Positions 2,617-60,726 of a DNA stretch of 64,000 nucleotides are shown here, piece after piece (within the stretch, counting starts at the first letter, position 1; every line of letters starts with the position of its first letter). The notes beneath the pieces are model-generated. The model was given only the letters and a program-made list of their open reading frames with translations. It was not told where the DNA came from and made no database searches. The stretch comes from a bacterium (GTDB taxonomy: Bacteria > Patescibacteriota > Patescibacteriia > JAACEG01 > JAGUWE01), in NCBI GenBank assembly GCA_043798995.1, contig JAZDOD010000008.1:119468-183467 (forward strand). The letters run 5' to 3'. The position numbers and the translations under genes are program-made.

Positions 2617-3711
2617 TTAGTAAATCAGATTTTTATCATGCACGCCCCTCAAGGCTAAGCCAAGCGCAGTAGTAAATTTAAGAGCCAAGCATTGATCGAA
2701 GGACTTATAAGTTCTGCCAATATTAACAAGGGGATTAGCTTTTTTGATATTTTTACCCAAAACAGTTTTTAGATTTTCTTCCAAGCCGCTTAAATTGGCT
2801 CCGCCTCCGCAAATGACAAGCTCGTTTATTTCTTGAGCTTCGGTAAAATGGTCTTTATAAAAGTTAATCGCTTCTTTTATTTTTTGGATTAAATGTTTGG
2901 TATTATCAGTCAATATTTCAGTTAAAATTGTCTGACATTCTTTATTTATACTACAAACAATTTTGGCTTTCTCGGCTTGTTCAAGAGAAATATTTAGGCG
3001 TTTGGCAATAGTTTCGGTTAAAATTTTGCCGGAAATCGGCAAACTGACGGTAAATTTTATATTATTCTGATCAAAAATAATAAGACTCGTTCTGACTCGG
3101 CCAAAGTCAATAATCATTTTTGCCCCGACATCTTGATTTTTATTGATCGGAAAAAGACTGCGGATGATTGCCATTGATTCAATTTCCAAAGCCACCGGTT
3201 CAAAACCGCAATATTTTAGCACCCCCAGATAATTATTAACTATGCTTTTGGGAGCAGCGCCAATCAGAATTTCAGTTGAGTTAGCGGTTTTACTAACTAC
3301 TTGCCAGTCCAGATATATTTCCTTGATTGGCAGGGGAATGTGTTCTTCGGTTTCGCGGCTGATTATCTCCGGAATTATTAACTCGCCTTTATCATATTTT
3401 TTTTCTTTAAGTTCCGAGCTTTCCGATTCAATTTTAATCCATTTAATAAATGTTTTCGGCTCAGGCAGAACCGAAATTACATTTTTGGTTTTAATTTTTT
3501 TGCCATTGATTTTCTTAAAAAGCAATTCCACACTTTTTTTGAATTGTTCCTGGTCTCGAATTTCGCCATGCTGAATACAGCCCTCCGGCAGATCTACGCT
3601 GCTAAAAGAAGTTAATTTAACAATTTTGCCGATTTTTTTTAGCTGAACTAATTTTAAAGTTAGTTCTCCAATATCCAGAGCAAAGGGCAAATTTTTTAAT
3701 ATTAAGGACAT
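2617..3711 (-). CDS. pilM: type IV pilus assembly protein PilM (actin-like ATPase fold)
   Basis: 364 aa with an FtsA/PilM-like fold and motifs (LVICGGGANLSGL, DIGELTLKLVQL), in operon context. Confidence 0.7.
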   Translation of the reverse strand: MSLILKNLPFALDIGELTLKLVQLKKIGKIVKLTSFSSVDLPEGCIQHGEIRDQEQFKKSVELLFKKINGKKIKTKNVISVLPEPKTFIKWIKIESESSELKEKKYDKGELIIPEIISRETEEHIPLPIKEIYLDWQVVSKTANSTEILIGAAPKSIVNNYLGVLKYCGFEPVALEIESMAIIRSLFPINKNQDVGAKMIIDFGRVRTSLIIFDQNNIKFTVSLPISGKILTETIAKRLNISLEQAEKAKIVCSINKECQTILTEILTDNTKHLIQKIKEAINFYKDHFTEAQEINELVICGGGANLSGLEENLKTVLGKNIKKANPLVNIGRTYKSFDQCLALKFTTALGLALRGVHDKNLIY

Positions 3712-36871: not shown

Positions 36872-37918
36872 ATGGGAGAAAGAATTACGATTCGACGGCC
36901 GGATGATTGGCATACTCATTTACGCGAGAATGAAATGCTGAAATGGGTTTTGCCTTACAGTAATGTTTTTGGCAGGGTGGTAGCAATAGGGAACTTGAAT
37001 AGACCGATTGTTGATGCTTATGATGTTAAAAAATATCGAATGGAGATACTCCGTCAAAAACCTCGCTTTCAACCAGTAATGAGTATTATGTTAGTCAAAC
37101 AGACCACCCCACAGATTATTTGCCGCGCCTTTGAAGAAGGGGCCAGAGTTTTAAAATTCATTCCGGCTGATACTTCAACCGGCTCTCAGGAAGGAATTTC
37201 TCTAATCAATCTTAAAGATTATTACCCGGTATTAGAAATGGCGGAGCGCTTAGTCATGATTTTTTCCGGTCATTGGGAGCTAACCAAAGATCCTGAAACT
37301 GCCCGGGTAATTCCTGAGTTAGAAAGAGAAGAAGCCGCTTTACCTTATCTCAAAAAAGTGATTGATGATTTCCCGAACCTTAAAATTGTTGTTGAACATG
37401 TATCTACGGCTAAAATGATTTATTTTATTGAAAAAGCCCCAGCCAATGTTGCCGCGACTCTGACCGCTCATCATATTGGACCAGCTTATTACCCTAATGT
37501 TTTCAATGAAAAAGGCGAAATAGAAGAACCATTTTATTATTGCCGACCGGTTATCAAAAATATTAAAGATGCGGATGCCGTGATGCGGGCAATGACCAGC
37601 GGCAACCCCAAATTTTTCTTTGGTTCTGATTCAGCGCCTCATCCGATTGAAAAAAAGCTGAAAAATCCGCCCGCGGCCGGTATTTTTTCCGCGCCAGTTG
37701 CTCTCGTGTGGGTATGGACTGCCTTTCAACATAGAAATAATGGTAAAGAATTATTTGAGAACTTTATTTCTCGCTCTGGCGCTGAATTCTACGGCCTGCC
37801 CCTGAATAACAATTATTTAACTCTTGTTAAACAGAAATGGACTGTTCCTAAAACTTATAATGGCATCGTTCCTTTTTTAGCCGGTTTTAAGCTTTATTGG
37901 CAAATCGCCGAGCAGTAA
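36872..37918 (+). CDS. pyrC: dihydroorotase (class II, E. coli type)
   Basis: IRRPDDWHTHLRE and LGSDSAPH motifs. Collinear with E. coli PyrC, with a strong AAAGGAGG Shine-Dalgarno sequence. Confidence 0.85.
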   Translation: MGERITIRRPDDWHTHLRENEMLKWVLPYSNVFGRVVAIGNLNRPIVDAYDVKKYRMEILRQKPRFQPVMSIMLVKQTTPQIICRAFEEGARVLKFIPADTSTGSQEGISLINLKDYYPVLEMAERLVMIFSGHWELTKDPETARVIPELEREEAALPYLKKVIDDFPNLKIVVEHVSTAKMIYFIEKAPANVAATLTAHHIGPAYYPNVFNEKGEIEEPFYYCRPVIKNIKDADAVMRAMTSGNPKFFFGSDSAPHPIEKKLKNPPAAGIFSAPVALVWVWTAFQHRNNGKELFENFISRSGAEFYGLPLNNNYLTLVKQKWTVPKTYNGIVPFLAGFKLYWQIAEQ

Positions 37919-37921
37919 ACC

Positions 37922-38002
37922 CCCACACCTAAATCTTTAGATTTAGGTGTGGGGGTAAATTTTCAATAGCCCACTCAAAAAACATCAAAGTGGGCTTTTT
38001 CT
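37922..38002. terminator. tandem hairpins after pyrC
   Basis: A 36-bp perfect palindrome of the CCCCCACACC family (CCCCCACACCTAAATCTTTAGATTTAGGTGTGGGGG), then a GCCCACT...AGTGGGC + T5 terminator. Confidence 0.65.
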
Positions 38003-43142: not shown

Positions 43143-43233
43143 TGTCATCCCGCACTTAATGCGGGATCCAGAACTTGCCCTTGTTAAAGTAAGGAACTAT
43201 CAAAACTGGATTCCTGCTTTCGCAGGAATGACA
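43143..43233. repeat. MITE-like composite of two inverted hairpin-repeat units
   Basis: TGTCATCCCGCActtaaTGCGGGATCCAG ... CTGGATTCCTGCtttcGCAGGAATGACA. Confidence 0.7.
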
Positions 43234-46518: not shown

Positions 46519-46614
46519 ATGTCATTGCGAGTCCAGCCCTTTCCGAATAAAGGGCTGGGCGTGGCAATCTCATTAATTACTAATTTGTCATGCTGAACTT
46601 GTTTCAGCATCTCA
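46519..46614. repeat. hairpin-repeat units (two)
   Basis: TGTCATTGCGAGTCCAGCCCTTTccgaataAAGGGCTGGgcgtgGCAATCTCA and TGTCATGCTGAACttgTTTCAGCATCTCA. Confidence 0.65.
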
Positions 46615-46702
46615 ATTAAAATTAGGTTTAATTAAGTTCACATAAAATCCAATCAGAGATCGAATATACAAAAACACATCACCTAAAAACGAGTTAGGTG
46701 AA

Positions 46703-48874: not shown

Positions 48875-48934
48875 AAATAAAATTTGTTCTGAACAGCGAA
48901 CTTCACTTGCCTGCCTCGTCGAGTCAAGGCGGGT

Positions 48935-49090
48935 TTCAGAGTTCCTTCGCTGTGTCACCCTGAGATCGTTTCAGGGTCTCAATGAGATGCTGAAACAAGT
49001 TCAGCATGACAAGATGGGCGAATCAGCAGACGGATTATTTCTCAATCTCCCGAGGCGGGACAAGTAAGTTCGGGATGACATTAAATAAGA
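48935..49090. repeat. hairpin-repeat array (at least 3 units)
   Basis: TGTCACCCTGAgatcgtTTCAGGGTCTCA; AGATGCTGAAacaagTTCAGCATGACA; ...TTCGGGATGACA. Confidence 0.65.
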
Positions 49091-49104
49091 AAGGGGGTGA
49101 GATT

Positions 49105-49362
49105 ATGGCAGAAGAAAAATTGATTGGCAAAATCACCCATTATTTTTCTAAAATCGGCGTGGCCGTGATTGGGTTAAGCGATACTTTAAAAGTCGGCAGT
49201 ACAATCCATATCAAAAACAGTGATCGCGACTTTAATCAGCAAGTTTCTTCCCTGCAGATTGAGCACGAACAGGTTAAAGAGGCAACCGCCGGCCAATCCG
49301 CTGGTCTTAAGGTTGATCAGAAAGTCCATGAAGGCGACGAGGTTTATTTGGTGAGCGAATAA
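49105..49362 (+). CDS. small beta-barrel protein resembling EF-Tu domain 2
   Basis: AAGGGGGTGA Shine-Dalgarno sequence 5 nt upstream. G.V..G.L..GD.V.I pattern. The ORF-track start at 49006 comes from the repeat ATG. Confidence 0.35.
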   Translation: MAEEKLIGKITHYFSKIGVAVIGLSDTLKVGSTIHIKNSDRDFNQQVSSLQIEHEQVKEATAGQSAGLKVDQKVHEGDEVYLVSE

Positions 49363-49389
49363 AAATAATATTATCTCAAATTATTATTC

Positions 49390-49515
49390 TATGTCACTGC
49401 GCACTTGCCTGCTCGCCGTAATTTTAATGCAGGCGGGATGCGGAATCCATACATTGTTTCTGTGAAAAAATAGATTATTGTTTAAAACTGGATTCCCGCT
49501 TTCGCGGGAATGACA
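49390..49515. repeat. hairpin-repeat units
   Basis: TGTCACTGCGCActtgCCTGC...GCAGGCGGGATGCGGAATCCA ... CTGGATTCCCGCtttcGCGGGAATGACA. Confidence 0.6.
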
Positions 49516-49705
49516 GATTAGAGATTAAAAATTTTCAAAGTTTTTTAATTGTGAGCAAAAGTTCATTTTTTTATTTTTTAAATACCCAATGATCTTGCCA
49601 GAAATTATTTTTTGCTATATATAAATAACTAATCAAAGCTCTTTAACAATCAAATAATTCGATATTTTATAAAAATGATAAAAACCATGTGAAAAGGAGG
49701 AGAAA

Positions 49706-59432: not shown

Positions 59433-59560
59433 TTGTCATTCCCGTTCCGTATCAAGAGTCCGGGGATTGTCATGCTGAACTCGTTTCAGCATCTCAGAGA
59501 CCCTGAAACAAGTTCAGGGTGACACAAGAAAATGTCCTGAAATAAATTCAGGATGACCAT
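59433..59560. repeat. tandem array of four hairpin-repeat units
   Basis: TGTCATTCCCG...CCGGGGAT; TGTCATGCTGAACtcgTTTCAGCATCTCAG; GACCCTGAAacaagTTCAGGGTGACA; TGTCCTGAAataaaTTCAGGATGACCA. Confidence 0.7.
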
Positions 59561-59568
59561 AAATAATT

Positions 59569-60726
59569 ATGAAAAAAGTTTTGCTTTTAACTTTGGATTT
59601 TCCGCCGCAGACCGGCGGAGTTGCTAATTATTTGGCTAATATTAGCCAAAATTTGTCAGCAGATAAAATTTCCATTTTAACAGTCAGGCAAAGTGGTTCA
59701 GCTAAATTTGATCAAAAACAGGGCTATAAAATTTATCGGGAAAATTTAATAAGTCAACTGCCAATTTGGCCCAAGTGGCTTGCGGCAATTTATCACGCTT
59801 TTCAGGTTATTAAAAAAGAAAAACCGGATTTAATTTTAGTTGGTCAAATTTTGCCTTTAGGCACGGTCGCTTTAGTCATTAAAAAACTTACAGGTCTTAA
59901 CTATTTTGTCTCTTGTCATGGTATGGATATTTTGCTGGCGCAAAAAAACAAGCGAAAAAAATGGCTGACAACTCTAATAATTAAAAACTCCCAACAGATT
60001 ATTGCTAATAGCCAATTTACTAAAAAAGAAATTATGAAATTGGGGGCAGGGGAGAATAAAATAACGGTAATTTATCCTTGCCCCCACACCAATATAATTG
60101 GTGTGGGGGCTTGTCCGAATATAACTAACAACCAACAACTTAACAACAAACAACTAAATGAAAAATTTAATTTATCTAATAAGAAAGTTCTTTTAACCGT
60201 TGGCAGATTAGTTGAACGAAAAGGACAAGACCAAGTTATTCGGGCTTTACCCGAGGTGATTAAAAGTTTTCCCAAACTCGTTTATTTTATTGTTGGCAGC
60301 GGGCCTTATCAGGGCGAGTTAGAAAAATTAGCCAAAGAATTAAATTTAGAAGATAAGATTATTTTTGCCGGCAGAGTGAATGATGAAGAATTAACCAATT
60401 ATTACCAAACAGCTGATATTTTTATTATGGCATCAAGACAAATTGCCGGCGATGTTGAGGGCTTTGGCATTGTTTATTTGGAGGCGGCTTCTTTCGGCTT
60501 GCCCGTCATTGCCGGCCGATCCGGCGGAGTAGGAGAAGCTGTGTTAGATGGACAAACTGGTATTTTGGTTAATCCGGAAAACATAAAAGAGATTGCCCAA
60601 GCAATTATAAAATTATTGGCAGATGAGAATTTAGCCAAAAAAATGGGACAAACAGGGAAGGAAAGAGTAGAAAAGGAATTTCAGTGGTCTAAACAAGCAG
60701 CGAAGTTAAAAGAATTATTAAAATAA
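59569..60726 (+). CDS. glycosyltransferase family 4 carrying an in-frame palindrome insertion
   Basis: GT4 C-terminal motifs (VGRLVERKGQD, EGFGIVYLEAASFGLPVIA). The 29-bp CCCCCACACC palindrome at 60081-60109 encodes PHTNIIGVGA. Confidence 0.8.
   Translation: MKKVLLLTLDFPPQTGGVANYLANISQNLSADKISILTVRQSGSAKFDQKQGYKIYRENLISQLPIWPKWLAAIYHAFQVIKKEKPDLILVGQILPLGTVALVIKKLTGLNYFVSCHGMDILLAQKNKRKKWLTTLIIKNSQQIIANSQFTKKEIMKLGAGENKITVIYPCPHTNIIGVGACPNITNNQQLNNKQLNEKFNLSNKKVLLTVGRLVERKGQDQVIRALPEVIKSFPKLVYFIVGSGPYQGELEKLAKELNLEDKIIFAGRVNDEELTNYYQTADIFIMASRQIAGDVEGFGIVYLEAASFGLPVIAGRSGGVGEAVLDGQTGILVNPENIKEIAQAIIKLLADENLAKKMGQTGKERVEKEFQWSKQAAKLKELLK

Follow-up and report, generated by a model that had tools for sequence, protein, structure and literature searches.

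A 29-bp hairpin inserted in frame into a Patescibacteria glycosyltransferase gene and its probable derivation from a short element encoding a GIY-YIG nuclease

How did a perfect palindrome come to lie, in frame, within a glycosyltransferase gene, and what kind of DNA is it? The question is raised by a 64,000-nucleotide stretch of a Patescibacteriota genome (GenBank assembly GCA_043798995.1, contig JAZDOD010000008.1, positions 119,468 to 183,467), in the following called the window, in which a 29-bp hairpin sits inside the gene of a GT4 glycosyltransferase. An initial annotation had read this hairpin, together with the AAC-rich stretch behind it, as a 25-aa insertion and as a sign that a palindromic element invades coding DNA. 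We find that the palindrome is very probably a non-autonomous, hairpin-only derivative, resembling a miniature inverted-repeat transposable element (MITE), of an approximately 300-bp element, which is bounded by terminal inverted repeats (TIRs), encodes a GIY-YIG nuclease and occurs mainly in Patescibacteria. The assignment is based on an insertion that duplicated 4 bp at a definable target, on a full-length partner which shares the ends, on the purifying selection acting on the nuclease of that partner and on a frame-filtered survival of the copies in genes. The locus comprises the following features, with positions counted within the window and the target-site duplication abbreviated TSD:

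59569 to 60726, + strand: host GT4 glycosyltransferase, 385 aa, identified from Pfam, orthologs, alignment, synteny and an AlphaFold model
60077 to 60080, no strand assigned: left TSD copy CTTG, defined by the empty site of locus L001, TATCCTTG/TCCGAAT, against TATCCTTG, element, CTTGTCCGAAT in the window
60081 to 60109, no strand assigned: 29-bp hairpin-only (TIR-TIR) mini element, CCCCCACACCAAT-ATA-ATTGGTGTGGGGG, inside the GT4 open reading frame (ORF) and missing from the empty site of L001/P0002
60110 to 60113, no strand assigned: right TSD copy CTTG, from comparison with the empty site in L001
60124 to 60155, + strand: AAC-rich segment coding for NNQQLNNKQLN, a native linker helix, present in P0002 and P0003 and helical in the AlphaFold model

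The palindrome reads exactly CCCCCACACCAATATAATTGGTGTGGGGG, with perfect 13-nt arms (14 including the adjoining G/C pair) around a 3-nt loop. It had zero matches in 100 shuffles, and as single-stranded DNA it folds with -17.9 kcal/mol, corresponding to z = -7.35 against shuffles. Its sequence, its in-frame position within the GT4 ORF and the encoded peptides had been given correctly. Pfam ends the Glyco_transf_4 domain at residue 170 (residues 16–170, E = 3e-19) and begins the Glycos_transf_1 domain at residue 198 (residues 198–366, E = 1e-48), so that both the palindrome and the AAC-rich stretch fall into the inter-domain linker, where the initial annotation had located them. The AlphaFold model (mean pLDDT 83.4) displays the two Rossmann-like halves of a GT-B fold, and a Wzx-type flippase gene lies upstream, in synteny with orthologous loci.

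Comparison with 120 GT4 orthologs delimits what was inserted. The nearest ones, P0002 (89% identity), P0003 (84%) and P0004 (70%), are 10–11 residues shorter at the insert point, and the nearest orthologs align as YP-CPN with YP-CPHTNIIGVGA-CPN in the window. The DNA of the P0002 locus, TATCCTTGTCCGAATATAACT, is a clean empty site, and the window has CTTG, 29 bp and again CTTG at this position; the insertion therefore consists of the 29-bp palindrome and a 4-bp TSD, in sum 33 bp or 11 codons, and the reading frame is kept, as had been claimed. The palindrome is thus a genuine insertion into the GT4 gene at ...TATCCTTG/TCC..., with CTTG duplicated, and contributes residues 171–181, the peptide CPHTNIIGVGA. 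The size proposed for the insert, 25 aa, has to be reduced to exactly 11 aa according to the ortholog alignment (29-bp element plus 4-bp TSD), and the AAC-rich stretch has to be separated from it. This stretch reads NITNNQQLNNKQLN at approximately 60124–60155, where TRF detects a weak 15-bp x2 repeat (60126–60155), and its counterparts, ITDNQQLNNQQL in P0002 and IHDLQLTTNNKQL in P0003, have the same length in the absence of the palindrome, a length which also equals that of the linker of all other orthologs in the alignment. In the AlphaFold model it forms an ordinary linker helix (residues 189–199) leading into the C-terminal domain. The N/Q-rich stretch is native sequence outside the insert. 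Whether palindrome-free orthologs have the same peptide, which had been named as a possible refutation, is consequently answered differently for the two parts: PHTNIIGVGA is missing from them, supporting its insertion, while the NNQQL segment is there, which refutes an insertion of that part. Palindromes can arise as amplification or assembly chimeras, but it is hardly conceivable that this one is an assembly artefact or of local origin, e.g. by template switching, given its TSDs and precise empty site and the presence of the same core in more than 100 independent assemblies (JGI, ENA, Logan, NCBI).

In the AlphaFold model, the insert forms a loop following the strand at residues 165–167, with pLDDT < 50 at residues 175–187. 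Since the 11 residues sit in a flexible linker between two Rossmann domains, reading frame and fold survive.

The hairpin is not confined to the window. In 6 of the 120 orthologs, a 29-bp hairpin occupies exactly the same nucleotide position, after TG and before the third base of the Cys codon that follows YP, with these left and right flanks:

Window (P0001): CTTG / CTTG
P0005: CATG / CATG
P0007: CGTG / CGTG
P0011: CGTG / CGTG
P0006: CATG / CGCG
P0009: CATG / CGCG

The filled orthologs are scattered in a neighbour-joining tree, in which the nearest neighbours of each are empty. On the simplest reading of these sequences, at least three or four independent insertions would have taken place at the GT4 site; some shared ancestry with precise loss is possible, because P0006 and P0009 have the same diverged flank. 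In its extreme form, shared ancestry would mean that a single old insertion was passed on by descent and on many occasions removed precisely, through slippage between the 4-bp repeats, which would render repeated targeting unneeded. Precise deletion readily affects palindromes that lie between short direct repeats, and the CATG/CGCG pair is common to P0006 and P0009 although these are not sisters in the tree. We nevertheless regard such a history as somewhat unlikely, since in each lineage both TSD copies bear the same synonymous variant (CTTG/CTTG, CATG/CATG or CGTG/CGTG), as predicted by local duplication. Furthermore, the arms of the window hairpin (..CCAAT) differ from those in other lineages (..CCAAAA), P0007 and P0011 have the hairpin centre in opposite orientations, and the closest relatives of the window display a pristine empty site. 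The 4-bp repeats were also considered as sticky-end ligation scars carried between sites, an origin which we reject because CTTG, CATG and CGTG each match the local codon of the GT4 gene.

Repeated occupation of the GT4 site, seen in six or seven orthologs, could also be expected if the insert were kept for its usefulness, either as a functional surface loop of the enzyme or as a regulatory hairpin in the mRNA. This is very improbable, however, as the same element is found in unrelated proteins and in intergenic DNA, 113 of the 120 orthologs do without the insert, the model assigns low confidence to residues 175–187, and the hairpin is neither terminator-like nor matched by Rfam.

At the same GT4 site, P0004 (locus L277) has the left arm TCCCCACACCAAAA only, followed by a different element of approximately 110 bp with the ends GTCATTGCGAG...CTCGCAATGAC, which recodes the linker and adds 23 aa. 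The spacer between flippase and GT4 gene of L277 also holds three hairpins, and in the window the corresponding 140-bp spacer is filled by three hairpins as well; it is missing in L002 and L003, whose flippase and GT4 genes are directly adjacent or overlapping. GT4 linker and flippase-GT4 spacer look like hot spots for several hairpin families.

To what extent the element occurs beyond this gene can be seen from a hairpin scan over one genome per species, in which the exact 10-nt core was required on both arms and which returned at least 120 loci, so that all counts describe a sample. Among the matches listed, the hosts are mostly Patescibacteria (Nomura-, Falkow-, Wolfe-, Nealson-, Buchanan-, Campbell- and Yonathbacteria, Saccharibacteria and Paceibacterota), with a few metagenome-assembled genomes of Omnitrophota, Elusimicrobia or Planctomycetes. 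A scan of viral contigs gave 66 matches, nearly all of high GC content and with inverted instead of direct flanks, and identical flanks were seen in only 3 trivial cases; the family is essentially absent from viral contigs. For TSD counting, elements were anchored on the core and compared with 2000 permutations. Exact 4-bp TSDs flank 44 of the 102 mini copies among the matches listed (permutation mean 8.2, maximum 18) and 12 of 32 full elements of the nuclease-encoding type described below (permutation mean 1.7, maximum 6). The duplicated sequence is variable (TAAA, TATA, CTTG, CATG and others), and the 61 copies with exact TSD yield the loosely palindromic target consensus G/TWWA/Y. Mini copies are 24–50 bp long, with a mode at 28–29 bp.

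Well inside long reading frames lie 21 of the 102 mini copies from low-GC loci among the matches listed, i.e. approximately 20%. Ten of their hosts could be confirmed by Pfam, namely GuaA, a histidine kinase, PolX, a DegT aminotransferase, a P-type ATPase, PurL, PolA, MiaA, an M16 peptidase and QueA, with domain envelopes which span or adjoin the insert. The proposal that the palindromic element invades coding DNA thus holds for the GT4 gene and extends to many other genes. The sum of element length and 4 is divisible by three in 16 of the 21 genic copies vs 34 of the 81 other copies (binomial p = 7e-5, Fisher p = 0.005), a bias which argues for translation of the inserts and for selective retention of frame-preserving ones only. 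Judged from this sequence pattern, the genic copies are apparently not removed by splicing but translated and subject to selective filtering. The core contains no stop codon in any frame, and its frame signatures PHT..GVG, PPH..CGG/WCG and PTP..VWG can be used to flag such inserts in protein annotations. An intein, an intron or a homing insertion was rejected as identity of the insert on account of the TSDs, the 16 frame-preserving copies among 21 genic ones and the lack of an intron match in Rfam.

Individual genes can harbor several copies. At L085 (3627–4339), three in-frame copies lie in one long ORF, which by eye resembles DNA polymerase III delta (HolA). Two copies are present at L060 (391–3096), of which at least the one at 3068–3096 belongs to the P-type ATPase ORF; the protein shows a second, degenerate copy, pphqkfgggg.

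In-frame palindromes in housekeeping genes have a precedent in the Rickettsia palindromic elements (RPE), which measure approximately 150 bp and add a conserved peptide (PMC10969869). The present family is similar in that a palindromic repeat is inserted in frame into unrelated housekeeping genes, with protein function apparently kept. According to the RPE description, it is set apart by a length of only 24–50 bp, which is about five times shorter, a clear TSD, an identified full-length partner and a different host phylum. It can be regarded as the Patescibacteria counterpart of RPE: among the smallest bacterial genomes, otherwise streamlined, are carriers of active hairpin elements which write short peptides into essential enzymes.

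Where such hairpins originate can be traced within the window itself, since its core CCCCCACACC/GGTGTGGGGG is present at three places, in addition to one nested copy of a related family, each with a 4-bp direct flank repeat. Besides the GT4 hairpin, these are:

15774 to 16180, + strand: 407-bp TIR-bounded element with a GIY-YIG gene, TSD TTTA at 15770–15773 and 16181–16184
15899 to 16117, + strand: GIY-YIG nuclease ORF, 72 aa as it stands, from Pfam PF01541 (E = 1.9e-16) and alignment with intact 84–86-aa homologs
15802 to 15899, no strand assigned: nested 98-bp element of a related TIR family, CCCGCCCACCAAT...ATTGGTGGGTGAG, TSD TGTA at 15798–15801 and 15900–15903
37920 to 37955, no strand assigned: second hairpin-only copy, 36 bp, CCCCCACACCTAAATCT-TT-AGATTTAGGTGTGGGGG, TAAA at 37916–37919 and 37956–37959

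The 407-bp element ends in CCCCCACACCAATT / AATTGGTGTGGGGG, of which 13 nt are identical to the arms of the GT4 hairpin. From reconstruction of the uninterrupted ORF, its nuclease gene originally started with the ATG at 15788 (MFYVYILKS...). The copy is degenerate, being split by the nested element, which breaks the ORF after codon 4–5, and shortened by a premature TAA, which costs the last ~12 residues compared to intact homologs. Searching the six-frame translations of the window with a hidden Markov model (HMM) of the nuclease family revealed this single GIY-YIG gene only. With the sole nuclease copy of the window broken, the GT4 copy must either be old or have been served by a copy elsewhere in the genome. 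The TIRs of the nested element are related yet distinct, and its length plus 4 amounts to 102, which is in-frame, but it ends in a TGA stop. At the second hairpin-only copy, the left TAAA provides the stop codon of the ORF 36872–37918. A terminator scan flagged neither palindrome, and Rfam matched zero families over the whole window, leaving a known RNA element or intron unsupported.

Intact relatives of the 407-bp element are common. A metagenome scan with the nuclease protein gave 80 loci at 54–83% identity, and in approximately 70 of them the gene is enclosed by an inverted-repeat pair of at least 12 nt in a unit of 266–322 bp. Thirty full elements of the CCCCCACACC type were measured and have a median span of 300 bp; their TIRs, 13–24 bp with the core CCCCCACACC, enclose one gene. 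The core CCCACACC is found on both sides in about 40 of the 80 metagenomic loci, chiefly with closer homologs of the nuclease, and more distant homologs bear other TIRs (ACCCCGTTAGAGA, GCCCCTCACCTA and others). None of 32 full-element ends has a hairpin partner of its own, which identifies the repeats as true TIRs and not as two separate hairpins. Full and mini copies with matching TIRs coexist at one locus in the window, in L128 and in L169. Additionally, copies of intermediate size (~70–170 bp, mostly ~100–110 bp) with the same core ends were observed at L003 (13435–13541), L130, L132, L133, L136, L162 and L169, most of them with an exact 4-bp TSD (TAAA, CTTG, TTGA, GTTA).

The canonical nuclease is 84–86 aa long (MFYVYILKS...YIGST...EHN...YYE...RE..LK), with the GIY, YIG, R, H and E motifs conserved. 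All 52 coding segments matched over full length are free of stop codons, and the median dN/dS of 0.19 (0.35 for pairs with dS < 1) suggests from sequence comparison that the protein is under purifying selection and functional. It matches 5645 cluster representatives at E <= 1e-3. As a negative control, three other GIY-YIG genes in the fetched loci, found by HMM search and one of them plainly YhbQ-like, lack TIRs of 12 nt or more, so that the TIR association is specific to this nuclease subfamily. The best PDB relatives, 1zg2 and 1ywl, are UPF0213 proteins, which have been described as minimal Slx1-like GIY-YIG domains (Dunin-Horkawicz et al.; PMC1564403). At L136 (2501–2749), the nuclease ORF contains an in-frame hairpin-like insert (..EAYKFPPPMYWCGDKSE..); in this case the family seems to have entered its own gene.

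No DDE, HUH, serine or tyrosine enzyme was found within the TIRs, the GIY-YIG protein (PF01541) being the sole gene there. Likewise, a search of ~120 loci and the window for longer elements (60–5000 bp) with the same ends and a TSD returned only the GIY-YIG element of the window and one tandem case, and hence no sign of a conventional transposase partner. These observations bear on a different assignment of roles, which reduces the GIY-YIG gene to a passenger or an addiction module and has an unlinked transposase recognise the CCCCCACACC ends and make the 4-bp duplications. TSDs of 4 bp and a target consensus which is palindromic are typical features of DDE transposases, GIY-YIG enzymes are nucleases acting by hydrolysis, and the window contains mini copies despite its defective nuclease gene. 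To our knowledge, GIY-YIG enzymes are not known for transposition or strand transfer, and a passenger role is therefore a live rival. We still consider it unlikely, since in ~70 of 80 loci the TIR pair encloses the nuclease gene alone within ~266–322 bp, the only longer element with the same ends and TSD other than the GIY-YIG one is, among the ~120 loci and the window, the tandem case, and the nuclease is maintained by purifying selection.

The closest described system is that of the Ssn nucleases with their NTS/SRM hairpin repeats (Chenal et al., Nat Commun 2025; PMC11893778). SsnA binds its hairpin repeat in single-stranded DNA and cuts a few nucleotides upstream, and the NTS/SsnA arrangement in Neisseria has been likened to an insertion sequence by the same authors (PMC11893778). 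Both systems share a tiny single-domain GIY-YIG protein of about 100 aa or less (94 aa for SsnA, 84–86 aa for the element nuclease) as well as a gene bracketed by an inverted-repeat sequence, which is also dispersed in short hairpin copies, with repeat and protein varying by lineage. By analogy with SsnA, the nuclease encoded by the element would recognise the TIR or hairpin and introduce staggered cuts, the insertion would be finished by repair or ligation functions of the host, and the same nuclease would mobilise hairpin-only copies in trans. On either strand, the hairpin is preceded at a distance of 4 nt by the outer edge of a TSD copy, a geometry which is compatible with cutting in the manner of SsnA. 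Given the exclusive association of TIRs and nuclease together with the precedent of SsnA, we infer that the nuclease itself may do the moving.

Several points weigh against the assignment to a nuclease-driven element of Patescibacteria, in addition to the lack of known strand transfer by GIY-YIG enzymes. The co-variation of TIR and protein could reflect simple linkage instead of recognition, and in the window the sole nuclease gene is both split and shortened. Copies without an exact TSD form the majority, although many are off at one position, which would fit decay. Regarding the host range, some matches outside the Patescibacteria may be due to binning contamination or chance, and the high-GC actinobacterial ones look like chance matches.

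Similarity to Ssn also leads to another interpretation, in which the hairpins are recognition sites of a single-stranded DNA nuclease within a domesticated Ssn-type system modulating incoming or single-stranded DNA, and the GT4 copy is a by-product of their spread. A small single-domain GIY-YIG protein with dispersed hairpins indeed matches the Ssn architecture (PMC11893778), and two canonical SRM/NTS-like motifs are present in the window where 0.07 are expected. We judge this interpretation distinctly unlikely on the basis of the differences between the two systems. The SRM consensus HGTCWY..RNCYNB is found in 0 of 143 CCCCCACACC-family elements; the Ssn gene lies between two complete hairpins, whereas the gene of the element lies inside a single split hairpin; TSDs and empty site demonstrate a transposition-like insertion of the element, evidence of a kind which the Ssn description lacks; and about 20% of the element copies are genic and in frame compared to 2% of NTS (PMC11893778). 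The hosts are Patescibacteria, the best PDB relatives of the protein are the UPF0213 structures named above, and domestication would leave the spread of the copies unexplained.

Further mobile families provide partial matches. The REP/RAYT and IS200/IS605 systems, to which the Ssn paper (PMC11893778) also refers, employ HUH (Y1) enzymes, make no TSD, have a fixed flanking tetra- or pentanucleotide and are extragenic. The element resembles REP/REPIN-RAYT and IS200/IS605 as a short hairpin repeat tied to a small nuclease acting on DNA hairpins; identity with these systems is ruled out by its TSD, variable flanks, GIY-YIG enzyme and ~20% genic copies. With MITEs it shares TIRs, a TSD with an empty site in a relative, multiple non-coding copies and ends common with a longer coding element, here with perfect arms of 13–14 nt and a core common to ~100 copies. 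It differs from them in being much shorter than common MITEs such as Correia/NEMIS, RUP or ERIC (PMC10969869), essentially two TIRs and a loop, and in having a partner which codes for a GIY-YIG nuclease instead of a recognised transposase.

We found no description of this element family in open-access papers and on bioRxiv, the nearest paper being that on Ssn, and the GT4 case is apparently a well-delimited instance of an undescribed variant of hairpin/GIY-YIG mobile DNA, distinguished by insertion evidence of unusual clarity and by a striking tendency to insert in frame and at the same site. TSD, empty site and target consensus, which are lacking in the 2025 Ssn/NTS description, are available here for hairpins tied to a minimal GIY-YIG nuclease. 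A step further, and with less than even confidence, we tentatively propose a new class of prokaryotic DNA transposon, in which an 84–86-aa GIY-YIG protein would act on its own 13–24-bp TIRs, insert at G/TWWA/Y with 4-bp duplication and spawn copies of 24–50 bp, in frame and at recurring sites, in essential genes of Patescibacteria. If true, the known transposases would be joined by a sixth type of enzyme, and Ssn-like pairs of hairpin and nuclease would receive the evidence of mobility which they lack. To put transposition driven by GIY-YIG to a direct test, a 29-bp substrate and an 85-aa protein would now suffice, and the nuclease/TIR pairs are candidates for new sequence-specific DNA tools. 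In rRNA genes of the candidate phyla radiation (CPR), GIY-YIG ORFs have been reported in non-intron insertions which are not homing-like (PMC11270868), and such elements may explain them.

Some other features of the window should be mentioned. Directly downstream of the GIY-YIG element follows an ORF of 759 aa (16230–18509), which by eye resembles a fusion of a type I restriction-modification methylase with a specificity domain. A near-perfect palindrome of 62 bp (14669–14730) is located between two ORFs, of which one ends at 14670 and the other starts at 14726; it has 31-nt arms of 87% complementarity and a sequence unrelated to the CCCCCACACC family.

The two matches to the SRM consensus are located at 43143–43171 (+) and 49488–49515 (-), with 0.07 expected from shuffles, and the latter, TGTCATTCCCGCGAAAGCGGGAATCCAG, is almost a canonical Neisseria NTS; an Ssn-like gene was not found in the window, whose only GIY-YIG ORF is that at 15899. 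A further hairpin family, (T)TGTCATGCTGAACTYGTTTCAGCATCTCA, with an SRM-like build (GTCAT, stem-loop and ATCTCA), is present at 46583–46615, 48984–49014 and 59465–59553, and the pattern CTGAAN{3,8}TTCAG has 7 matches in the window vs 0.27 expected. The intergenic regions 48880–49100 and 49380–49520, which flank the ORF 49006–49362, are packed with several GTCAY-type hairpin repeats, and the repeats around this ORF look like a cluster similar to bacterial interspersed mosaic elements (BIME).

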